A stretch of 64,000 nucleotides of DNA from Candidatus Latescibacterota bacterium (GTDB lineage Bacteria; Latescibacterota; UBA2968; UBA8231): contig CBDCDC010000002.1 in NCBI GenBank assembly GCA_965215195.1, positions 2,240,001 to 2,304,000 of the forward strand, read 5' to 3'. Below, one piece after another: positions 3,078-17,933 of the stretch (its first letter is position 1; each line of letters begins with the position of its first letter). The position numbers were made by a program, and so were the translations under genes. The notes beneath the pieces are model-generated. The model was given only the letters and a program-made list of their open reading frames with translations, was not told the DNA's origin and made no database searches.

Positions 3078-3979
3078 TGGCGCGCTGGCGTCAGTACCAA
3101 TCAACCGCCTTGATCTATGCGATCTTGCTACTCGTGCTCAGCGGCATGGTGGTGCCGCTGGTGTGGACCCTGCTCACCTCCTTCAAGTACAACGTCGATG
3201 TGACGCTCGGGTGGATTCCGCCGCGCTGGACCACGGACAATTACGCCGGCGTGTTCCGCGCCTTTTCCTTCCTCCGCTACTACGCCAACTCCCTGCTCAT
3301 CGCCACCGCGGTCACCGCGGTCCAAGTTGCCACTAGTGCGCTGGCGGCGTACGCCTTTGCCCGCTTGCAGTTCCGGGGCCGCGACGTGCTCTTTTTAGGC
3401 TACTTATCGACGATGATGATTCCGGCCGATGTGCTGATGATCCCGCAATTCGTGCTGATGAAGAAAATTCCCGAATGGCTAAACGCGGTGTTAGCAACGG
3501 ATTTTTTCAGCGGTTTCCTCTACTTAGGGGGGCACTATATCGGCCATCCAGTGGGGCTAGACAGCTTTTTCGCGCTCATCGCACCGGGATGTTTCAGTGC
3601 CTATGGGACATTCATGCTGCGGCAGTTTTTGCTGGGCATTTCGCACGAGATCGAGGAGGCTGCCCTCATCGACGGATGCTCGGCGTGGGGCGTATTTTGG
3701 CACGTGGTGGTGCCGCTGGCCAAGCCGGCGCTGGGGGCCTTGGCGATTTTTACCTTCCTCGGGCGTTGGCGGGCCTTTCTTTGGCCGCTGATTATGACGG
3801 ATTCGGATTCCATGATGGTGCTGCCGGTGGGGTTGGCCAAGCTATCGGACCTGTACGTCAACGACTACGGGCTGATTTGCGCGGGGTCGGTGTTGATGCT
3901 CGTGCCGATGATCGCGGTTTTCGTCTTTTTTCAGCGCTGGTTTATCAGCGGGATTCAGCTAGGGGCGGTGAAGGGGTGA
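3077..3979 (+). CDS. Carbohydrate ABC transporter permease
   Basis: EEAALIDG EAA motif, C-terminal FISGIQLGAVKG; TAATG coupling to upstream gene. Confidence 0.92.
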   Translation: MARWRQYQSTALIYAILLLVLSGMVVPLVWTLLTSFKYNVDVTLGWIPPRWTTDNYAGVFRAFSFLRYYANSLLIATAVTAVQVATSALAAYAFARLQFRGRDVLFLGYLSTMMIPADVLMIPQFVLMKKIPEWLNAVLATDFFSGFLYLGGHYIGHPVGLDSFFALIAPGCFSAYGTFMLRQFLLGISHEIEEAALIDGCSAWGVFWHVVVPLAKPALGALAIFTFLGRWRAFLWPLIMTDSDSMMVLPVGLAKLSDLYVNDYGLICAGSVLMLVPMIAVFVFFQRWFISGIQLGAVKG

Positions 3980-4013
3980 CTACGCGGTAAAACGCCCTGA
4001 TTTGTAGCTTTCC

Positions 4014-4128
4014 GACCTCCTAGCCGGGTGAAGAAGGATAACCTGCACGGGGAAATCGACACCGGGGCCGCGGAGGGCAAAGAAATGTAGTGCGGTCGGC
4101 CGAGTACGTCTCAAAACGCGGCGAGGCA
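4014..4128 (+). pseudogene. Remnant of a mazEF-type toxin-antitoxin pair (antitoxin C-terminus plus toxin N-terminus)
   Basis: Translates as DLLAG/VKKDNLHGEIDTGAAEGKEM* (one frameshift; resembles MazE C-terminus) immediately followed by VRSAEYVSKRGE (resembles MazF N-terminus). Confidence 0.55.
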
Positions 4129-4266
4129 AAATGGTTGATCTTCAATCCTCAAGCCGGTCACGAGCTCAGGAAGATATGAACGAAACTTCTCAGACTCGTT
4201 GCGATACTTCGAGTACAGCATTTTGATCAGTTCGTCTTTTGAATTAGGCACTTTTTTCGCAGACAT
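4111..4266 (-). CDS. Short divergent ORF (51 aa), probably truncated N-terminus of a lost gene
   Basis: MSAKKVPNSKDELIKMLYSKYRNESEKFRSYLPELVTGLRIEDQPFCLAAF*, divergent from the island across an AT-rich spacer; runs into the mazEF remnant. Confidence 0.3.
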   Translation of the reverse strand: MSAKKVPNSKDELIKMLYSKYRNESEKFRSYLPELVTGLRIEDQPFCLAAF

Positions 4267-4454
4267 GGCACACTCTGTGTTCTCAATCTTTCGTTGTCAG
4301 GCAACCAGTACTGGAATGTTAAATAAAGTTATAAAATTATAGCGTTCCGTTCAGAAAATAGCGTATATTGGAGGGCAGTTGAGTCAGGTTCATCATTCTA
4401 CCTGTGGTTTTCAAATAGTTAGTACAGTTTACTTATCCTATACATCGCAACTGA

Positions 4455-5342
4455 ATGAAGGAGGTTTCCGAAATAGTCGTGAAGACGAGTACCGTAACGT
4501 ATCGCGCCCTAAGCCTAGGAGCGGGAGCGCAGAGTTCAGTCCTAGCGCTTCTCTTATCGCGGTCCGACCCTCACTTGGTCAAACTTGGTTATCCCAAGCC
4601 GGACGTCGCTGTCTTCGCCGACACCGGGTGGGAGCCGGATTATGTGTACCGTCACTTGGACTGGCTTGAGGAGCAACTTGAGTATCCGCTGCTCCGAGTG
4701 TCAGACGGCGATCTGAAGACCAACTTAAAAAAAGGACGCACGGTGTCGAACCATCGCTTTGTCGATGTCCCTTTGTTCATGGTCAATGAGGATGGCAAGA
4801 AGGGCATGCTGCGACGGCAATGCACCAACCACTACAAAATCAGACCCATCTATCGACGGATCAGGGCACTCGCTGGTGGACAGCGTGGCCGGCCATTCCC
4901 GAAGGGTACACATGCCGAAATGTGGCTCGGGATTTCACTGGACGAGGTGGGCCGCATGAAACCGAGCAGGGAACCTTGGGTTGAGCATCGCTGGCCTCTA
5001 GTGGACCTCGGCATGTCGCGCCGCGATTGCGTCGAGTGGTTTTCTGCTGAGTATCCAGGCCGCCACTTGCCTCGATCGGCTTGTGTCATATGTCCGTATC
5101 GGTCAGATGAACACTGGCTGGAACTGAAACGGTCTGAACCGACTAGCTTTGACGAGGCCGTAGAGTTCGACCGCTGGCTCCGCAGAAGCACTGAGACGCC
5201 AGTACGCAAGCTACTGAACGGTCGTCCATATCTGCACTCCGCCCGCCGCCCCCTCGCCAGTGTCATAAAAGAACGGGAGACGGAAAGCGCGAACAGTATC
5301 AACAACTTCAATAATGAGTGCGAAGGCCTCTGCGGTGTCTGA
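4455..5342 (+). CDS. PAPS-reductase-like adenine nucleotide alpha-hydrolase (PP-loop) protein with Cys motifs
   Basis: SLGAGAQSS (variant PP-loop), FADTGWEP, RRQCT..YKI, SACVICPY and C-terminal ECEGLCGV. Confidence 0.8.
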   Translation: MKEVSEIVVKTSTVTYRALSLGAGAQSSVLALLLSRSDPHLVKLGYPKPDVAVFADTGWEPDYVYRHLDWLEEQLEYPLLRVSDGDLKTNLKKGRTVSNHRFVDVPLFMVNEDGKKGMLRRQCTNHYKIRPIYRRIRALAGGQRGRPFPKGTHAEMWLGISLDEVGRMKPSREPWVEHRWPLVDLGMSRRDCVEWFSAEYPGRHLPRSACVICPYRSDEHWLELKRSEPTSFDEAVEFDRWLRRSTETPVRKLLNGRPYLHSARRPLASVIKERETESANSINNFNNECEGLCGV

Positions 5343-6582
5343 AACAGAGGCGGAGAAGGTCAGTCCCAAGTACCCGCTATATCCCTACCAGCGGCAGGTG
5401 CTGGCCGACATCGTCCGTGCCCTATCATTGCCTGAGCGTCGAGCCGTCGCTCATCTTCCTACCGGTGCCGGAAAGACCAGAATCGCAGCCCACACGGCCT
5501 GTCACCTGCTCAACGAGAAAGATACCGATGACTCCCTTGTCATTTGGTTGGCGGCTACAGAGGAACTTTGCGAACAGGCGGCAGACCAACTCTCAGACGC
5601 TTGGACTTATCTGGGACGGCGAGATGCCTGCATTCACCGACACTGGGGTAATCGGTCGCTAGAACTAAGGCGTCTCCCATCCGGGTTCCTAGTGACAGGT
5701 CTTGCCAAACTGCGCTCCGCTGCGTTCCAAGACAACACCCTCCTTGCACACCTTGCACACTGTGCCGCGGCTGTCATCTTCGACGAGGCTCATCAGGCAG
5801 TTGCGGAAACCTACTCCTTCATAACTGAGCAGCTATGTAGTGTAAGGCCGCCACTTCTCGGCCTTACGGCCACGCCAGGGCGCACTACCAATCTCACGGA
5901 CGCAGATTATCGACTTGCCAACATGTTCAATCACAAAAAGGTTTCAATAGACCCAAAGGGACACGATAGCCCCGTTACTTATCTGATCCAGAACCGCTAC
6001 CTCGCCGATCCACGTTTTGTACCAATCAGCTTCGACTCCGATGCTCCAATCTCCGACCCTCAACCCGGTATGGATTACAGCACGGATGACCTCGACAGTC
6101 TAGGCCGCGACCGCGACCGCACACTCAAGATCGTCGAACTCGCCGAGGCTGCGGCTACACGTCATCCTCGTACAATCGTATTCTGTCCCTCCGTGGAAGG
6201 TGCTATGGATTGCAACTGTCTCCTTCGAGCCAAAGGAGTTCTAGCTTACGTGGTTACTGCCAATACCCCCGGTGAAGACCGTCGGGCGATCATCGACGTT
6301 TTCAGAGGCGACAGTAGGAAGCATATCGTGTTGCTCAACTATGGCGTACTCACCGCCGGCTTCGATGCACCCCGTACCCGATGCGTCATAATCGCTCGCC
6401 CCACCACATCGCTGGTGCTCTACTCACAAATGGCGGGACGAGCACTGCGCGGCCCTAGGGCTGGTGGAAATTCAAAAGCTGAGATACTCACCGTTGCCGA
6501 TACGAACCTTCCGGGGTTTGGATCTGTAACTGATGCATTCACAAACTGGGAGGAACTATGGTCGACCAACTCGCCGAACTAA
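5314..6582 (+). CDS. SF2 DEAD/DEAH-box helicase (restriction-subunit-like)
   Basis: LYPYQ Q motif, LPTGAGKT, DEAH, TATPGR, LTAGFDAP, QMAGRALRG. Confidence 0.92.
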   Translation: MSAKASAVSETEAEKVSPKYPLYPYQRQVLADIVRALSLPERRAVAHLPTGAGKTRIAAHTACHLLNEKDTDDSLVIWLAATEELCEQAADQLSDAWTYLGRRDACIHRHWGNRSLELRRLPSGFLVTGLAKLRSAAFQDNTLLAHLAHCAAAVIFDEAHQAVAETYSFITEQLCSVRPPLLGLTATPGRTTNLTDADYRLANMFNHKKVSIDPKGHDSPVTYLIQNRYLADPRFVPISFDSDAPISDPQPGMDYSTDDLDSLGRDRDRTLKIVELAEAAATRHPRTIVFCPSVEGAMDCNCLLRAKGVLAYVVTANTPGEDRRAIIDVFRGDSRKHIVLLNYGVLTAGFDAPRTRCVIIARPTTSLVLYSQMAGRALRGPRAGGNSKAEILTVADTNLPGFGSVTDAFTNWEELWSTNSPN

Positions 6583-8414
6583 AAGATGAAGATCGCAGCT
6601 TATTTCCGGGCAATTTCACCATACGGGCTCTTCGAGACAGTAGGTATCACAACACCGCGTATGCCGTTGCCGAACTCATCGACAACTCAATAGACGCAAA
6701 TGCCCTACGGGTTGACCTCCTCTGTATGGAAGAGTTTCAGAGAGTAGGGTCGCGGAATCAGCGACGAGTTTCCGAAGTGGCGGTCCTTGACAACGGCGAC
6801 GGGATGGACGTGAAGACTCTCTTTGATGCCCTCAAATTTGGCGGAGGAACCCGTCATGATTCGGATAGAGGAGTAGGGAAATACGGGATGGGCCTCCCAA
6901 CCTCGTCAATGTCACAATGCAAAAGGGTGGATGTATGGACTTGGCAGGACGGCTTGGATTCTTCGGTATGGCACTCCAGCATCGACGCTGACGACATTGA
7001 GCGAGGGAACCATGAGGTTCCCATTCCTGATCAAGAGACGCCTATACCTGAGGTATGGATGTCCGCTGGCAGCGACGAGATCTATGAGAACCGCTCAGGT
7101 ACTCTCGTCGTCTGGACCAAACTGGACAAGATTCAGTGGAGAACCGGCAGCACTATCCTCAAACATACAGCACGGGAAGTCGGCCGGATCCATCGGCACT
7201 GGATTGATGCGGAGATGACAAGAATACGAGTCGGCTTTTTTCTTAATAACCGCCCTACCATAATTGAGGGCGAGGACTATATCGTCGCAAACGATCCTCT
7301 CTACTTGATGAAGCCTTCGTCTACTCCTGAGCCTTGGAATAACGAACCGATGTTTAGAGAATGGACCAAGAAAGAGTATACACCTATCGTGGACGGTAAA
7401 GAGGTCTCTATTGAGGTGAAGTACTCAATCGTTAAGCCTGAAGCCTTGCAGACGAACATGGTCACGCAGAATCCCGGTGCTGAAAAGCATGGTACACACG
7501 CTAGGCACAACATCGGCGTATCGGTTGTTCGAGAGGATAGGGAGATTGTGCTCGAAGACGCCTTCCTCAGAGAAGGTGGCAGTGCTGAGAACCCACAAAA
7601 CCGCTGGTGGGGTTGTGAGGTGCATTTCCGTCGCAGTTGCGATGAGTTGTTTGGCGTAGATCACAACAAGCAGATGGCTGCGAACTTCACACATGCTGCG
7701 AAAACGCTCGCCCGGGACGACCGTCCCAATCAGGTAATACTAGATGAGATGGGAGTCGACGACGACATAATCTACACCATAGTGGGAGATATCCGGGACC
7801 AAACGCGTACTATGATGCAAGCAATCAGGCAGATGTTTGCACAGCGACGCGATCCACAGAATGGAGGTGGTAGAAGAAGCCCGGAAAATAAGGCTGTGAA
7901 GACTGCCACCGACGCAGATCGAGACGCTATAGATGCAGGTATTGAGACGCCAACCAAGACTGATAGAGATCGTGAGCAAATTCCATCCCAAGAGCGGGAA
8001 GCGCGCCTTACGCAACAATTTATTGAAGCTGGTCAGGCCGATCAAGACGCCCAACGACTCGCGGAGCTGTTGGTAGAGGAAGATCTCTCATACCAGTTCA
8101 ACTCGGCTCAGCTTGACGGATTCCAGATTTTTAACGTGCGCTCGAACCAAGGAGTCCTGCACATCAATCTCAATACCGATCATCCGATCTATGACCTCCT
8201 CAAACACATTGAAGATGACCTTCCAGATGATGTCGACGAGAGCAACCCTGCGTTCCAAGCCAGTGTTGCGATCAGATTATTGCTGTCGTCGTGGGCTCGG
8301 ATGGAGGACCAGACCGAATCGCGAGAAGAGCGAACTCGCATTCAGGACATTGCCATGAACTGGGGGCGTCAGGTAGATAAGGCCATCAATCAACTGCGTG
8401 ATAGAGACGGATAG
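6558..8414 (+). CDS. MORC-type GHKL (HATPase_c) ATPase
   Basis: AVAELIDNSIDA (N box), VLDNGDGM (G1), GVGKYGMGL (G2), GTLVVW; long C-terminal region, no kinase HisKA domain evident. Confidence 0.85.
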   Translation: MVDQLAELKDEDRSLFPGNFTIRALRDSRYHNTAYAVAELIDNSIDANALRVDLLCMEEFQRVGSRNQRRVSEVAVLDNGDGMDVKTLFDALKFGGGTRHDSDRGVGKYGMGLPTSSMSQCKRVDVWTWQDGLDSSVWHSSIDADDIERGNHEVPIPDQETPIPEVWMSAGSDEIYENRSGTLVVWTKLDKIQWRTGSTILKHTAREVGRIHRHWIDAEMTRIRVGFFLNNRPTIIEGEDYIVANDPLYLMKPSSTPEPWNNEPMFREWTKKEYTPIVDGKEVSIEVKYSIVKPEALQTNMVTQNPGAEKHGTHARHNIGVSVVREDREIVLEDAFLREGGSAENPQNRWWGCEVHFRRSCDELFGVDHNKQMAANFTHAAKTLARDDRPNQVILDEMGVDDDIIYTIVGDIRDQTRTMMQAIRQMFAQRRDPQNGGGRRSPENKAVKTATDADRDAIDAGIETPTKTDRDREQIPSQEREARLTQQFIEAGQADQDAQRLAELLVEEDLSYQFNSAQLDGFQIFNVRSNQGVLHINLNTDHPIYDLLKHIEDDLPDDVDESNPAFQASVAIRLLLSSWARMEDQTESREERTRIQDIAMNWGRQVDKAINQLRDRDG

Positions 8415-8416
8415 GA

Positions 8417-9256
8417 ATGTACGGGCGGCCAGGAGACATATTGAGCAGTATTTGTTCAGGTGCTCAGCAGCTCATCATCGCGGCACCGTACGTCAAGGCT
8501 GATGCTCTTACTAAAGTTCTGGCCGACGTTAGTCCGGCAGCATCCCTCATCTGTATCACGAGGTGGAATTTACACGACTTCGCAGCAGGTGTGTCCGACA
8601 CCGAATGCCGCACTATTATAACTGAGCGTGGAGGCTCATTCAGGCTCCACCCGTCACTTCACGCCAAGTACTATCGAATCGATGATGTGATCCTCGTTGG
8701 GTCTGCGAACCTCACATCTTCCGCAATGGGCTGGTCACCCCATCCTAATTTGGAGATTCTCTGTCGTCCAAGAGACGACTTCGACGCGGATACCTTTCAG
8801 CAGTTCCTATTTGAAGGAGCGAGAGAGATTGGCGATAAGGAATTCGCACATTGGGAATCCATAGCTAAAATTGGCGCTCAAGACACGAGAAACGCAACTG
8901 GCGGCCAACCCCGGCTTGACACTTGGCGACCAGCGACTCGTGACTTTAGGAACTTAGAACTCTCCTATCAAGGCAGAGAAGACGAGATAGCTTCATTCGA
9001 TGAGCAGCGAGCGGCGCAGCGCGACATCCAAGCACTCCTAATCCCGTCGGGCTTGACCGATGAGCAGGTCCGAACGTGGGCATCGGCTTGTCTTCTCGCG
9101 GCACCTTTCACTAACGCCGTGATACGGCTACATGAGATGGAGGCACCAAGTGCTTCCCGCTCGCTCGCTGAGACCTATAGCCTCAGTTCTACCGAGGCAA
9201 GAAGAGACATGGAAACAGTACAGAATTGGCTCGCATCCCTCGTCCCTGAGACTTGA
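8417..9256 (+). CDS. Phospholipase D family nuclease-like protein (single HKD motif)
   Basis: IAAPYVK, HAKYYRIDDVILVGSANLT (HxK....D..GSxN), NLE. Confidence 0.85.
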   Translation: MYGRPGDILSSICSGAQQLIIAAPYVKADALTKVLADVSPAASLICITRWNLHDFAAGVSDTECRTIITERGGSFRLHPSLHAKYYRIDDVILVGSANLTSSAMGWSPHPNLEILCRPRDDFDADTFQQFLFEGAREIGDKEFAHWESIAKIGAQDTRNATGGQPRLDTWRPATRDFRNLELSYQGREDEIASFDEQRAAQRDIQALLIPSGLTDEQVRTWASACLLAAPFTNAVIRLHEMEAPSASRSLAETYSLSSTEARRDMETVQNWLASLVPET

Positions 9257-9442
9257 AGTTTTGCCAAACGAAAGAGAGAAATTTGATCCTGCCTGCGTAG
9301 CCGGGGCCGGTCGGCTTATCCCACCAAGCGTACACCGCTTCGGTATCGACGGAGATATAAAAGGACCTAGAGCGACTCCTCCAGACCAGCCCGCCTATAC
9401 GTTCACAGTCGTCTCTTGCGTCCCAGTACTCGCGCATCGGCG

Positions 9443-9559
9443 GAAACTACACGACACCAGCCCTCAGCCTGCCAAGGATCGAGGGCGTCCCGCCCTCGAT
9501 CCCGGACCCATCGGAAACAGCAGAAAATGCGTACTCTAAAGTAAGTGTCGTGTACTAAG
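9443..9559. mobile_element. MITE-like element, degenerate copy 1
   Basis: Inverted ends TACACGACAC (9448-9457) / GTGTCGTGTACTAAG (9545-9559); internal hairpin GGATCGAGGGCG-TCC-CGCCCTCGATCC; interior homologous to copy 2 in opposite orientation. Confidence 0.7.
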
Positions 9560-9572
9560 CTATCGGGTTACG

Positions 9573-9950
9573 CTAGCCCCAGCTCCCGTCCTTCCGCTTG
9601 TGGATGAAAATTGGATTTCCTCCAGGATCGCTGATCATGGCCACATGGCAGGCAGAGAGCTCATTCGGACCCCACTCAACCTCCACGCCTTTTCTACGCA
9701 ATTCTGCAATCGCCTCGTCAAAATCGCTCACGGCTAAGGAAAGACCGCTACCTCCTTTACCGTTTGCCAAAGGCGAGCCTTCATAAGTGCCAAACAGCAC
9801 TAATGTTATTGGAGGCACTGAAAATTCCGCCCAATTCCACTGCGGATTGTGCAGTTCCAGCTTGAGCTCAAGAGTATCCCGATAGAAGGAAACCGCTTCC
9901 TCCAAGTTATGCACATAATGTACTACGAAATCTACTCCGCGAATGTTTAT
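9573..9950 (-). CDS. VOC/glyoxalase family protein
   Basis: VHNLEEAVSFYRDTLEL and ISDPGGNPIFI motifs; frame extends to ATA at 9950 preceded by AAGGAGG (first conventional start GTG at 9914). Confidence 0.8.
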   Translation of the reverse strand: MNIRGVDFVVHYVHNLEEAVSFYRDTLELKLELHNPQWNWAEFSVPPITLVLFGTYEGSPLANGKGGSGLSLAVSDFDEAIAELRRKGVEVEWGPNELSACHVAMISDPGGNPIFIHKRKDGSWG

Positions 9951-10005
9951 ATTGACGACCTCCTTGAATGCACCTCAGAAGTTGAACTAGTCTGGGTCTC
10001 CCTTG

Positions 10006-10686
10006 TCATGCACCAGCGTCCCTCGGCACCTGAATCTTGATCCCCCAAGACAGAGTAGAGAACCTGATCGTCTCTACGGAAAAACCCAAACCGCGCAGAT
10101 AGCCGACGGACGCATCAACGTGCCAAAAAAACTCTTCTTCAATAGCGTCTGCTGTAGCGTCGTCGCCAATGGAACGATAGCGATCAATCAAAATCCGCTC
10201 CTCCTCTGCGCTCTCCAACATTAGATCCCCAAACAAAGCACACCCCCCAGGCAATAGCCGCTGCACAAGCTGATTAAATAGAAGTTCTTTCTCCTGCTGA
10301 GTAAGATGATGTGCGGCGTATGTACTAATCGCGACATCGAATGGAGGAATATCGGCGTCGAAGTACTCCAGTATATCTGCTTGCACATACGAGATATGGG
10401 ATGCTCCACGGAGCTTTTGTTGCGCAATTTTATTCATTTCAGCAGAGACATCTACACACACAAGAGACCGGCACGGCGGCAAGCGAGCGGTCAAATTTCC
10501 AGTCCCAGAGCCAAGTTCCACAACGGCCGAATCCTCGGTGATACCGGCGTTCTGCGCGCTCCAGTCAAGGACCTCGGCGTAGCCCTCTCGAATGGGATCC
10601 TCAGATCTAAGCACATCCTGATCATACGTGGCAGCATCCTCGTCGTGATTGTAGAGATCTACGTTTCTACTTCTCACCTCCGTCAT
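10006..10686 (-). CDS. Class I SAM-dependent methyltransferase
   Basis: VVELGSGTGNL motif I, VDVSAEM, FDVAISTYAAHHL, LLPGG. Confidence 0.88.
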   Translation of the reverse strand: MTEVRSRNVDLYNHDEDAATYDQDVLRSEDPIREGYAEVLDWSAQNAGITEDSAVVELGSGTGNLTARLPPCRSLVCVDVSAEMNKIAQQKLRGASHISYVQADILEYFDADIPPFDVAISTYAAHHLTQQEKELLFNQLVQRLLPGGCALFGDLMLESAEEERILIDRYRSIGDDATADAIEEEFFWHVDASVGYLRGLGFSVETIRFSTLSWGIKIQVPRDAGA

Positions 10687-10712
10687 CCTTTCACAGCGTT
10701 TTTGAATAACCA

Positions 10713-10981
10713 TCAAAGAAGCCCCTCCTCGCCGGGCGTCTCGTTTTCTACCGAAGAAGGGGACAACGCCCGGTGCTGTGCGCGGTTGATCGCCGCAAGA
10801 AGACGTTGGGCGTTTTTGGGCGATCTGAGGAGATGAGCCGTCGCGAGGAGGCTGGCTAATTCGTCGGCTGAAACCAGCGCGACGTCTTCGGCATTGCGCC
10901 GCCGTATAATCACCGGCTCGCGGGTGGAGGCGACTTTGTCGCAGAGGGATGCGAGTTTGGATCTGGCCTGAGTGTGGTCAT
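10713..10981 (-). pseudogene. Phd/YefM family antitoxin, frameshifted near start, no toxin partner
   Basis: SD AAGGAG then ATG at 10981 out of frame with TQARSKLASLCDKVASTREPVIIRRRNAEDVALVS...HLLRSPKNAQRLL. Confidence 0.7.
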
Positions 10982-10995
10982 TTGGTTCTCCTTAT

Positions 10996-11022
10996 AACAT
11001 GTACCTATTTAGCGTACATGTT
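10996..11022. promoter_or_regulatory. Inverted-repeat operator upstream of the yefM-like remnant
   Basis: AACATGTAC-N9-GTACATGTT perfect 9-bp inverted repeat; TGTAC core resembles YefM-YoeB operators. Confidence 0.55.
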
Positions 11023-11110
11023 GTGAAAATCTGATCAACCCCTCGGCATCGAAGAGCTCAACGACCCGCCTACAAGAGGCCGGGGCGACAGCGGACCACG
11101 CCCGCTTACT

Positions 11111-15972: not shown

Positions 15973-16785
15973 CTAGGGAGAGAGCATTGCGGCAATTTCA
16001 TCGAGATACATTTTAAGGGACAATCCGTGGCTTTTTGCCAAAATCGCTAGCGTATCAACCTTTGTTCGTTCCCCCTTTTCGATTCTCCGCACATGGCGTT
16101 CAGAAAGCCCTTGTATCTCGGCTTGCTTAAGCCCGTACTGCTTGCGCAATGCGGCAACGGCCTCTCCGAAACGGAGGTCGTACATTAGTCTTTCCCGATC
16201 CTTTTTTTCTCGCCATCTGTCGTCTTTTAGGCAGCGAACAGCATCTAGGTCAATATGTACATCAACCTCAGGCCAGTGCATATAACTGCCTTCACTCGAA
16301 ATGGTAAATGAAGAACGCTGTTGGGCTGGAATGCGCCCAAGGGCGGGCATTTCTGCAAAATCTACTCTGAACAAGGTGTGATCACAGGCCATGACAAAGA
16401 GTTCCTCAGCTACGACCTGTGCAGCGGCAATGAGTTGCTCGGGACATCCAAGACTCCAAGCCGTTAGCACGCGCTTGGGCACATCCTTAGTCGAATGCAC
16501 GAGAATATGTCGGCTGCTTTTGAGTTTTGCCTCGTAAAGCATTTGCGGCAAAAACTGAGCGTTGTCGTCTTCGCGGACGAAAAGGGTTCGAAGATGATTT
16601 CGATGATTGGCAGCACGGACAAACTCACTTACAGCAGGAAGGTCGGCAACAGAAGTTAATACGAAAACATCCCGCGCGTTTACCCTGCTCACATCTGGTT
16701 TCCGAAAAACAGTGAAAGAGGGCGGAATGATGTCATAGCTAAATGGGTCTTGGGCCCAGATGGCCATTTCAGCAGTCTTTGACAT
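15973..16785 (-). CDS. DUF2442 + XRE-type HTH protein, probable antitoxin with N-terminal extension
   Basis: FTISSEGSYMHWPEVDVHIDL (DUF2442-like), C-terminal LRKQYGLKQAEI...SERHVRRIEKG HTH. Confidence 0.7.
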   Translation of the reverse strand: MSKTAEMAIWAQDPFSYDIIPPSFTVFRKPDVSRVNARDVFVLTSVADLPAVSEFVRAANHRNHLRTLFVREDDNAQFLPQMLYEAKLKSSRHILVHSTKDVPKRVLTAWSLGCPEQLIAAAQVVAEELFVMACDHTLFRVDFAEMPALGRIPAQQRSSFTISSEGSYMHWPEVDVHIDLDAVRCLKDDRWREKKDRERLMYDLRFGEAVAALRKQYGLKQAEIQGLSERHVRRIEKGERTKVDTLAILAKSHGLSLKMYLDEIAAMLSP

Positions 16786-16787
16786 TT

Positions 16788-17066
16788 TTAGCTCCTTATA
16801 TCCACTTTGGCTTCCCACTCGGCATAAAGTGTGGCTCTATGCTGAAGCACCAGACCTAACAGTGTCCGCTGCTCTTTGCCCGAAGGGCCTGATCTCGAAG
16901 GGGGAAACTTCACATTAAAAACTAGATTGCCGCGTTTACATGTACTAAAAAAGACGCGTATCTCCCATTTGTCCGGTTTGCGAGCGTGAAAATGAGGTGG
17001 TTCGTGATCTGAGGAATTGAACCATAATTCCAAGCCCGCCAATTGAAAGCATTCCAACTTTCCCAA
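16788..17066 (-). CDS. DUF4160 family protein, probable toxin
   Basis: FNSSDHEPPHFHAR and LYAEWE motifs; TTG start after GGAG. Confidence 0.75.
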   Translation of the reverse strand: MGKLECFQLAGLELWFNSSDHEPPHFHARKPDKWEIRVFFSTCKRGNLVFNVKFPPSRSGPSGKEQRTLLGLVLQHRATLYAEWEAKVDIRS

Positions 17067-17222
17067 AAGATGGCTCCTCGCTTTCCACCAGAGAAAATGG
17101 CTAAAATCGGACAATAAATCAATTATATATAAATTAAAAATGTCCGGTTTGCGAACGCCTGCTCTTGTTGAGGACAGTGAGCATATTGCGGTGCGCTCTG
17201 CAATACCGCCCTCCGAAGATCT

Positions 17223-17933
17223 TCAACGCGGCCCAGCGCACCCCAAGCCCAGCAATGACAAGCACCTTTGCGTCAGCTCATCCACGCTAGCTGCACTTAC
17301 GTCCACACTGACCAGCCCATGCTGCCTAACTGCATCCATCATTTGCGCGTTGTAGAGCAGGCTGCGCTTCAGAAACTTATCCACCATCCTTCTTTCGCGC
17401 TGGGACTTCGTTCGATACTGACTTGCCGCGCAAATTCTCTGCTCAAAAACGGCGTCACTCGCTGTGAGCCAAATGGCAGCGAGGTTGGCAACCTCTAGGG
17501 TCGCTGCAAACTCTGGCCACAGAGCGGATCCCTCCACTATTATCCGCTCCTTAGAAGCGGTCTGAAAGCGGTCCTCTGCGGCCCCTAGATGGCTTGGCTT
17601 GCCCTCGCATGGGGGAGGGCGAGACGCCCTCCATCCTGCGGTCGCGGTCGCCGCGACGATCGCCTCAACTTGCGGCCATACATTGACCTTGTAGTGATGA
17701 AGCACGTCCTCAAGCAATGCGCACACCGACAGCGAGAGATAGTGATCGGCCACGTGGTCGGGCACCTGCTGCTGCGCCGGTTGCCACGGACGACCGGGAT
17801 GGCGGGCGAGTTTGTCCGTGGAGATTTGGGCCCACCCCAGTTTTGCTGCCAGCGCGGCGGCCAGTGTCGATTTGCCAACGTGGGACGAACCGCCGATGAG
17901 GATCACTCGCAAGTCAGCAGGTGCTTGGCGCAT
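17223..17933 (-). CDS. P-loop kinase (2-phosphoglycerate kinase-like) with in-frame hairpin insertion
   Basis: LIGGSSHVGKST Walker A, ISTDKLARHPGRPW, IIVEGS. Confidence 0.75.
   Translation of the reverse strand: MRQAPADLRVILIGGSSHVGKSTLAAALAAKLGWAQISTDKLARHPGRPWQPAQQQVPDHVADHYLSLSVCALLEDVLHHYKVNVWPQVEAIVAATATAGWRASRPPPCEGKPSHLGAAEDRFQTASKERIIVEGSALWPEFAATLEVANLAAIWLTASDAVFEQRICAASQYRTKSQRERRMVDKFLKRSLLYNAQMMDAVRQHGLVSVDVSAASVDELTQRCLSLLGLGCAGPR

Follow-up and report, generated by a model that had tools for sequence, protein, structure and literature searches.

We describe a compact four-gene cassette, genes A to D, at positions 4455..9256 of a 64,000-nucleotide stretch of DNA (the window) from a Candidatus Latescibacterota bacterium (assembly GCA_965215195.1, contig CBDCDC010000002.1, positions 2,240,001 to 2,304,000 of the forward strand). 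The cassette is a horizontally mobile accessory element that joins an SspD-like PP-loop enzyme to a superfamily 2 (SF2) helicase, a MORC-like GHKL ATPase and a phospholipase D (PLD)-family nuclease. We predict that it is, on balance, probably a minimal, mobile and self-contained defence system of the phosphorothioate (PT) restriction-modification type. The prediction draws on the conservation of the four genes across phyla and on the recurrence of the last three beside canonical ssp genes on plasmids.

An earlier note on this DNA, written from the sequence alone, had described four co-oriented, tightly packed genes. Coordinates and junctions are exactly as it gave them: A and B overlap by 29 nt, B and C overlap by 25 nt, and C and D are separated by 2 nt.

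4455..5342, + strand: gene A, SspD-like enzyme with a 3'-phosphoadenosine-5'-phosphosulfate (PAPS) reductase/PP-loop fold, 295 amino acids (aa); proposed modification (sulfur-transfer) subunit
5314..6582, + strand: gene B, SF2 (ResIII/DEAH) helicase-translocase, 422 aa, assigned by Pfam, PADLOC and motifs
6558..8414, + strand: gene C, MORC-like GHKL ATPase, 618 aa, with a C-terminal region of ~420 aa that matches no family
8417..9256, + strand: gene D, single-HKD PLD-family nuclease (residues 1-150) with a helical domain (166-279), 279 aa; proposed effector

A mobile unit of four genes

One genome per species was searched for close relatives of A, which yielded 28 loci (L numbers below). Tblastn with the four window proteins recovered the complete order A-B-C-D in 24 of them, an arrangement far beyond chance; the synteny across genomes that the earlier note had proposed as a check therefore holds, and in several phyla. 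All carriers are metagenome-assembled genomes (MAGs), drawn from at least five phyla: Candidatus Latescibacterota, Chloroflexota (Dehalococcoidia, Caldilineaceae, Anaerolineales and Tepidiformaceae), Binatia, Rhodothermaceae (Bacteroidota) and Spirochaetia. The four incomplete loci either reach contig ends (L009, L028) or are cut, one after residue 141 of C by a DDE transposase (L013) and one after residue 136 of B (L021). Among the complete loci, the N-terminus of C is unmatched in L007 and that of B in L019, and L017 carries an extra open reading frame (ORF). This 698-aa ORF (L017:13879-15975, from a Spirochaetia MAG) lies between C and D and has no Pfam family.

The unit has sharp limits. 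In the 27 loci with a blastn match, similarity begins at window positions 4446-4587, ends by 9254 and never includes the flanks. The two nearest ORFs per side were compared with Pfam in 25 loci (97 ORFs, together with the L017 insert; L002 and L025, near-copies of L001/L003, and L028 were left aside), and they are mostly unrelated housekeeping genes. Seven of the 25 loci have neighbours of a defence type (AbiEii, GmrSD-HNH, DNA methylases, Uma2, NYN), and SspB and SspC are absent among the 97 flanking ORFs. Because similarity is confined to the cassette and the flanks are unrelated, the unit moves alone and not within a fixed island. A fifth conserved gene was considered and rejected, as the ~300-aa ORFs that follow D are lineage-specific and the one in L006, a NERD protein, shares no family with that in L001. 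The NERD ORF (L006:14853-15749; 2.9e-5) directly follows the cassette and has equivalents in L007 and L010 only; these three are Chloroflexota loci with a common insertion site.

Distribution is patchy. The cassette is present in one of 24 other genomes of the same genus, where it occupies a chromosomal site other than the window's, in four of 41 relatives and in 12 of 168 genomes across the phylum (the window's own genome counted in the last two figures), one of the 12 holding a fragment only. The lower GC content claimed in the earlier note is borne out, at 0.539 for the cassette and 0.600 for its flanks, and GC is likewise below that of the flanks in 20 of 21 other loci. In a quick IQ-TREE phylogeny, 21 cassette A proteins form one tight clade (SH-aLRT 96-100) in which phyla are intermixed. 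For example, one Rhodothermaceae and one Latescibacterota copy of A are 95% identical, and cross-phylum copies are 70-91% identical.

All four genes are maintained by purifying selection, as the ratio of nonsynonymous to synonymous substitution (dN/dS) over six pairs ranges from 0.05 to 0.26 (A, 0.05-0.09; B, 0.09-0.24; C, 0.10-0.16; D, 0.15-0.26). Their rates of change differ: mean pairwise identity is highest for A (75%) and falls through B (68%) and C (58%) to D (55%). Where A is nearly identical, C is the fastest-diversifying part, with 40-47% identity in the pairs L023-L024 and L006-L010 at 93% for A (40% for C in L023-L024). L006 and L007, inserted at a common site, have A proteins that are 97% identical, with identity of only 58% for B and 48% for D. 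Between the window and L005, synonymous divergence (dS) for A to D is 1.14, 0.21, 0.69 and 0.29. One genome (G111) holds two full cassettes (L070, L071) whose A to D proteins are 97.6%, 94.7%, 84.4% and 93.5% identical, and another (G112, L072) has an intact copy and, ~2 kb away, pieces of a second one (A, aa 76-113; B, aa 2-82). The parts of the cassette recombine. Fast turnover of B-C-D beside a constant A is as expected if B-C-D face invaders or carry specificity.

The B-C-D triad beside ssp genes on plasmids

A tblastn search of plasmids with C returned 22 records, 14 of them full-length. Eleven of the 14 loci were inspected; a second Trichormus strain and two matches at 24-27% identity were omitted. 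Orthologues of B and C are adjacent in all eleven, with 33-38% identity for C. A PLD orthologue of D comes next in nine (L077-L085), where B is 40-44% identical; in the other two (L086, L087) B is 27-28% identical. Agrobacterium pAtCFBP7129b and Aminobacter pUSP2 have a 359-aa endonuclease in D's place, a replacement that reads, from its sequence, as an effector swap. These 359-aa proteins (L086:9028-10107; L087:9786-10865) have no Pfam family, and their first ~95 residues match the PADLOC model "Effector endonuclease".

Canonical SspD (PADLOC 6e-91 to 5e-138) was found in the fetched flanks of nine of the eleven loci, accompanied by SspB, SspC and SspA/DndA where checked and, in one locus, by SspE. 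DndB-like proteins occur in four loci by PADLOC, Pfam or record annotation. The two loci that have no SspD are the Agrobacterium plasmid, which encodes SspF (2.8e-237) and SspG (5.9e-219), and that of Cyanobacterium HL-69, with an annotated cysteine desulfurase only. On Pannonibacter p.BB_2 and Pleomorphomonas pSM30-2, the genes run in a single direction as sspB-sspC-sspD-helicase-GHKL-PLD; by this order, A fills the position of sspD in the compact cassette. Hosts of triads linked to canonical sspBCD include cultivable bacteria, with Trichormus, Roseobacter, Pannonibacter and Mesorhizobium plasmids among them; examples are Trichormus variabilis ATCC 29413 (plasmid A), Roseobacter litoralis (pROLI83) and Pannonibacter phragmitetus (p.BB_2).

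Could the triad be SspFGH under another guise? We rejected this identification: B, C and D have no match at E<=0.01 to the PADLOC SspE, SspF and SspG models, which do match the plasmid controls. Judged by gene content and sequence, the B-C-D triad is a recurrent partner of PT modification, distinct from SspE, SspFGH, DndFGH and PbeABCD.

Domain identities of the four proteins

The domain identities proposed in the earlier note are confirmed by Pfam and PADLOC matches and, for D, by a structure model. The key motifs that it regarded as intact are invariant or at least 90% conserved in alignments of 16-21 homologues.

Gene A is best read, on its sequence, as a divergent member of the SspD/DndC branch with a PAPS-reductase fold and an Fe-S-type set of cysteines. 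It matches PADLOC SspD (E 1.5e-13, 49 bits, model positions 4-221 of 277); its match to Pfam PAPS_reduct (E 1.7e-3) falls under the curated cut-off, and no NCBIfam family is assigned. A P-loop variant, S20-L-G-A-G-x-Q-S-S, and six cysteines are at least 90% to fully conserved in 16-21 homologues; A has the pattern QCT...CxxC...ECEGxCG. An alignment was made of A, its relatives from phages and plasmids, and eight plasmid-encoded canonical SspD proteins. Common to all are FxDTxxE, RxCTxxxKxxP, IxxDExxR and SxCxxC, along with a cysteine at the very C-terminal end, and four cysteines of A align with those of canonical SspD. The host also encodes a separate CysH with the classical CC...CxxC...ECGLH pattern; since it carries comparable cysteines, the cysteine scaffold is a feature of the superfamily. 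A profile of A found no match among Protein Data Bank (PDB) sequences. Its AlphaFold2 model resembles PP-loop enzymes: the top Foldseek matches are TtuA (an Fe-S tRNA thiolase), CysH and GMP synthetase, and a search independent of Foldseek placed PAPS/APS reductases at Z 10.2-11.5, effectively tied with GMP synthetase, TilS, NcsA, LarE and TtuA.

Gene B is an SF2 helicase by its Pfam matches (ResIII 8e-19, DEAD 5.7e-14, Helicase_C 7e-14), and its Walker A GAGKT, DEAH, TAT and QxxGR motifs are invariant in 20 sequences. Its best PADLOC match is PbeA, in the helicase region only (positions 238-431 of 672; 1.9e-18), and its best NCBIfam match is RadD, at 104 bits with a cut-off of 720 bits.

Gene C carries a GHKL ATPase domain (HATPase_c_3, 2.3e-21) with the conserved boxes N43, DxGxG and GKxGMG. 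In a profile comparison with solved structures, MORC2 (1.3e-7), MORC4 and MORC3 rank ahead of Topo VI-B, PMS1 and SMCHD1. A match to MzaB is confined to the N-terminal part; residues 200-618 have no Pfam family at E<=1 and no match to Morc6_S5.

Gene D matches PLDc_2 at 7.3e-5, under the cut-off, and further matches are to DrmC/ZacB. The match to DrmC is weak (PADLOC 8.1e-10; NCBIfam 21.9 bits with a 133-bit cut-off). The motif H82-x-K84...G95-S-A-N98 is invariant in 21 sequences, and D89 is present in at least 90%. In a structure model of high confidence (predicted local distance difference test, pLDDT, 92), residues 1-150 resemble the PLD domain of SauUSI (Z 14.8, root-mean-square deviation 2.6, 140 aligned), Nuc (12.5) and BfiI (12.5), a nuclease type that presumably works as a dimer. 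The C-terminal domain has no Pfam match, and the weak fold matches of the helical part (BrxA 5.4, SspB 4.7, FokI recognition domain 4.6) serve as a lead only. A profile of D returned one insignificant match among PDB sequences, and the Protein Atlas gave only generic HATPase_c_3 and PLDc_2 clusters.

Relatives of A on phages and plasmids

Gene A belongs to a large family. An exhaustive profile search recovered 4769 clusters at 50% identity (E<=1e-3), 1519 of them with E<=1e-30, and all 20 representatives scanned match PADLOC SspD modestly (E 1.8e-22 to 4.5e-8). An N-terminal DUF6339 is present in six of the 20 and the PADLOC candidate component PDC-M33C, to which DUF6339 corresponds, in seven; DUF6339-bearing members measure ~530-575 aa. 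The searchable literature mentions neither "DUF6339" nor "PDC-M33".

Full-length homologues of A at less than 60% identity (tblastn) occur in 171 plasmid records (105 from Agrobacterium; many of the plasmids are conjugative) and 44 phage records, including Pelagibacter phage HTVC034P, Geobacillus phage PK5.1, Thermus phage P23-77, Salisaeta phage 1 and Mycobacterium prophages. These orphans, often read as sulfur-metabolism genes, are 30-45% identical to A over the full length, the ECEGxCG tail included. Only the tight cassette clade of A is joined to B-C-D, and viral contigs yielded only four distant relatives of C, at 27-30% identity.

In the four loci inspected, the contexts of the orphans are DNA-centred. 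On an Agrobacterium pAt plasmid (L074:4051-5843), an A-family gene begins at the stop codon of a complete gene for ArdC, an anti-restriction protein with ArdcN (5.7e-42) and a zincin peptidase. A Mesorhizobium plasmid (L073:4485-5804) carries a fusion gene in which the initial ~115 positions of a C5 DNA-methylase domain precede the A domain; this gene adjoins an N6/N4 methylase. Two phage contexts place the A homologue in replication/recombination modules. None of these four opened contexts, two plasmids and two phages, is characterised in the searchable literature.

Host genome, insertion site and boundaries

The 6.13-Mb host genome (95.2% complete) contains A in single copy and as its sole match to the SspD model. 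It has no DndC-family match (TIGR03183), and SspB and SspC gave no match with one model each (PDLC02780 and PDLC02769), the controls also being without a match. Cysteine desulfurases are plentiful, with 17 PF00266-family matches (best E 1.7e-148), all outside the cassette. The earlier note had seen no SspB/C, DndD, DndE, cysteine desulfurase or DNA methyltransferase at the locus; none of these, nor DndC, lies in the cassette, and the desulfurases are found only elsewhere in the genome.

Two further features border the genes:

4267..4454, + strand: AT-rich upstream spacer, presumed operon promoter/leader; GC 0.45 in bin 4001-4500
9446..9556, no strand: dispersed repeat resembling a miniature inverted-repeat transposable element (MITE) or repetitive extragenic palindrome (REP), with copies in the genome; boundary marker outside the cassette

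The spacer occurs once in the genome, and other cassette loci have no conserved equivalent; a scan for the sigma-70 consensus found no site within it and no excess over shuffled sequence. The ~110-bp repeat has an internal palindrome and at least 40 copies of 77-95% identity, spread over both of the genome's contigs, and it is not conserved beside the cassette at other loci. The boundaries drawn in the earlier note, a MITE and a scrap of a toxin-antitoxin (TA) gene, therefore hold in part: the MITE stands, and the TA label was dropped, as the 51-aa ORF that bore it (4111-4266, - strand) has no Pfam family even at E<=1. We also rejected att-like or inverted repeats bracketing the cassette, having found only matches of chance size.

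The insertion site lies in a variable hotspot (window 3980-11109, from a sugar ATP-binding cassette (ABC) permease gene to ABC exporter genes) whose content differs in each of four relatives, and in one relative only ~396 bp separate the permease gene from a methyltransferase gene. In two of these genomes (G009, G021), a 53-121-bp stretch from the end of the permease gene (window 3857-3977) recurs 1.2-1.4 kb downstream, which suggests site-specific insertion at the 3' end of that gene. The methyltransferase (10006-10716, - strand) is a class-I S-adenosylmethionine-dependent enzyme of the generic Methyltransf_25 type (PADLOC mad2, 1e-16). It is also found in same-genus genomes that lack the cassette and so belongs to the host backbone; being generic and kept in cassette-free relatives, it was rejected as the modification gene and is probably not defence-related. 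Further along the window, a second low-GC patch (~16000-17500) contains a 281-aa ORF with DUF2442 and HTH_3 (15973-16818, - strand) and could represent a further small insertion, mobile or of the toxin-antitoxin type.

Proposed mechanism and alternative readings

In the mechanism we propose, a housekeeping cysteine desulfurase encoded elsewhere would supply sulfur to A, which would mark host DNA, most likely with a phosphorothioate or related sulfur mark. B would translocate on DNA, driven by ATP. C, as a DNA clamp or sensor like other GHKL clamps, would capture or sense DNA and license D, which as a dimer would nick or cleave DNA that lacks the mark; the helical domain of D is possibly DNA-binding. 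Four elements of this scheme, namely the action of A on DNA, PT as the mark, a B-C-D complex and attack on unmarked DNA, are ones that we infer. The earlier note had likewise assigned marking to the PP-loop enzyme and restriction to the helicase, MORC and PLD proteins; the partnership gains independent support from the plasmids on which B-C-D flank sspBCD and sspA, and the scheme is conjectural as to what the mark is chemically and which way discrimination runs.

We count several lines of evidence for a PT-type restriction-modification system: the A-B-C-D order across phyla, its mobility, the selection on its genes and the ssp linkage; A as the only SspD-model match in a host with 17 desulfurases and no DndC, SspB or SspC match with the models used; the DNA contexts of the A clade (ArdC, C5 methylase, phage replication); and the closeness of D to restriction nucleases and of C to MORCs. 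Other observations weigh against it. Identity between A and canonical SspD is only 24-28%, and the SspD model gives A 49 bits as against 303-457 bits for canonical plasmid SspD. The P-loop of A and its relatives reads G-A-G-x-Q-S in place of S-G-G-K/R-D-S, so ATP pyrophosphatase chemistry is not assured, and the AlphaFold2 model of A has a low pLDDT of 65. To install PT, the known systems require an ATPase and a nickase that recognises DNA (review PMC12707154), and the cassette has none dedicated to the task. The closest PLD-helicase partner of PT, PbeABCD, works without DNA cleavage (available text of PMC6459918). Exchange of B-C-D alleles under a constant A weakens the case for tight co-adaptation of mark and reader, A-clade genes that stand alone in phages could have a non-DNA substrate, and promoter and terminator scans gave no excess over shuffles.

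The direction of discrimination is not readable from sequence, and B-C-D might instead be stimulated by the host mark, acting on the invader in the manner of SspE or stalling replication uncut as PbeABCD does. SspE is stimulated by PT, and PbeABCD needs PT and spares viral DNA, according to the available parts of PMC8092258 and PMC6459918; PT marks sit at a minority of sites, as far as the accessible text of PMC12914056 goes, a poor fit to cutting every unmarked site; and the best PADLOC match of B is PbeA. Yet D is a nuclease-type PLD protein, restriction-enzyme-like and with an invariant HKD motif, and the third gene of the triad is swapped for an endonuclease in two of eleven plasmid loci, by which nuclease activity appears selected for. 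We regard mark-dependent action as unlikely, with a small though real chance of being right. A comparably small chance attaches to the idea that A modifies no DNA at all, its target being a protein, a nucleotide, tRNA or a sulfur metabolite and its role that of a regulator, signal maker or accessory, and that B-C-D are a modification-independent helicase-nuclease defence. Its P-loop is non-canonical, its fold is tied among PAPS/APS reductases, tRNA thiolases and other PP-loop enzymes, a PP-loop relative in the fold list (Cap9, 9nto) modifies a protein, and B-C-D alleles swap independently of A. Against these stand the linkage of B-C-D to DNA-PT genes in nine of eleven plasmid loci, the sspD position being taken by A in the cassette; the relatives of A adjoining ArdC, DNA methylases and phage replication genes; and a host that has its own CysH, A itself having no NCBIfam metabolic family.

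That the cassette only modifies, with D as the nickase in lieu of SspB and B or C as the ATPase in lieu of SspC, seems to us quite improbable. The core PT set comprises a sulfur transferase, an ATPase and a DNA-recognising nickase (available text of PMC12707154), the C-terminal domain of D is weakly SspB-like (Z 4.7), and no restriction partner is known for 83.9% of sspBCD clusters (PMC8092258, section 9). On plasmids, however, the triad coexists with complete sspB, sspC and sspD and so is not needed for modification there; sets of MORC, SFII helicase and HKD nuclease accompany methylases as predicted restriction parts (accessible text of PMC2292703); and the fast allele turnover of B-C-D is typical of invader-facing components. 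Least probable of all, and very much so, is a housekeeping operon for DNA repair or chromosome maintenance. RadD is the best NCBIfam match of B, far under its cut-off, and MutL-type GHKL proteins act in repair, but patchy presence, cross-phylum transfer, differing insertion sites, low GC and ssp linkage all speak against such a role.

We therefore return to a predicted PT-type restriction-modification system, and a bolder form of it deserves mention as a tentative idea that is more apt to be wrong than right: A-clade proteins may be autonomous, single-protein modifiers of the DNA backbone (phosphorothioate or other sulfur), the cassette the smallest PT-type restriction-modification system, and the triad a missing restriction partner of sspBCD. 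If so, the phage and plasmid genes labelled PAPS reductase or cysH-like (4769 clusters) would serve anti-restriction DNA modification and not sulfur metabolism, and, should A alone install the mark, PT-type modification would need much less machinery than thought. Wang et al. (2021) found neither SspE nor SspFGH in 2,211 of 2,678 sspBCD clusters (83.9%) and asked whether more such partners exist (PMC8092258, section 9); the helicase-GHKL-PLD triad is a concrete candidate. Prokaryotic MORC/paraMORC systems are still only "proposed" as restriction-modification-like in the accessible part of a 2026 preprint, and a compact MORC system of four genes, its mark not made by a methylase, would lend itself well to study as a model.

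Comparison with known systems

The earlier note had held that the combination matches no recognised system. PADLOC and NCBIfam assign no named system to the cassette, and none of its proteins reaches a curated equivalog cut-off. The earlier note's reading of the locus as a candidate undescribed operon agrees with this: no account of the four-gene set or of a linkage between ssp genes and the triad was found in the searchable literature, which did not cover Xiong et al. 2020 or the Ssp, Pbe and MORC supplements.

Among PT systems, Ssp is the nearest to A: SspD is its best-matching PADLOC model, and the two have core motifs and cysteines in common; a desulfurase may act in trans, as iscS does, and of the two arrangements known for Ssp, in cluster or in trans, only the latter is found here. 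Canonical SspD is high-scoring, whereas A forms a separate clade with a variant P-loop at 24-28% identity. Ssp also has SspB, a DUF4007 nickase, and SspC, a large ORC/Cdc6-type ATPase, and the cassette has neither. Its restriction partners SspE and SspFGH are not matched by B, C or D; SspF is a Walker-A protein and SspH is FtsK-like (PMC8092258, available text). Nor is the cassette a fragment of a larger dnd cluster, an outcome the earlier note had listed as a possible refutation: it lacks DndC, DndD and DndE, A has no PADLOC DndC match at E<=0.01, and TIGR03183 has no match in the genome.

The PT-linked restriction branches given in a 2025 review are only DndFGH/SspFGH, SspE and PbeABCD. PbeABCD is alike in being a four-gene, PT-linked cassette that spreads by horizontal gene transfer, and PbeA, a fusion of PLD, ResIII and Helicase_C, has the domains of D and B; PbeC is an SMC-like AAA protein, and the system needs PT and leaves viral DNA uncut (PMC6459918, available text). 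Here, PLD and helicase are separate genes, C is a GHKL and not an AAA_23/SMC protein, the small pbeB and pbeD genes are missing, and one gene stands in place of the Pbe modification module, dndCDEA.

Several other systems share single parts. A has neither a curated CysH match nor the CC...CxxC...ECGLH pattern. For BREX type 4, A has no BrxP match at E<=0.01, whereas canonical SspD proteins match BrxP at 1e-8 to 1e-14, and the window flanks contain no BREX genes. For DISARM, D is only weakly DrmC-like, and DrmA and DrmB were not found. The orphan PAPS reductase-like genes belong to the same clade as A and differ in standing alone, beside ArdC, methylase or replication genes, or fused to DUF6339. 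D shares the PLD fold and a single HxK(x)4D...GSxN motif with SauUSI, BfiI and Nuc; SauUSI likewise pairs PLD with an SF2 motor, which in the cassette is a separate protein, and BfiI likewise has an extra C-terminal domain, that of D being helical and not B3-like.

A parallel for B-C-D as a set is found in the MORC/paraMORC systems. Iyer, Abhiman & Aravind (2008) placed MORCs in predicted restriction-modification systems with SFII helicases, HKD nucleases and methylases (PMC2292703), and the text of that paper contains no PAPS-reductase or PP-loop term. Like the cassette, these laterally mobile systems put a GHKL ATPase next to an SFII helicase and a nuclease, of the HKD or another type: C has the GHKL domain of the MORC radiation, and B and D are the adjacent helicase and nuclease. 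They carry DNA methylases, mostly for cytosine, and the cassette carries none. Overall, the parts follow known themes, on one side the MORC, SFII helicase and HKD nuclease sets of restriction-modification systems and on the other the SspD-type transferases, and it is their combination, not their category, that seems new.

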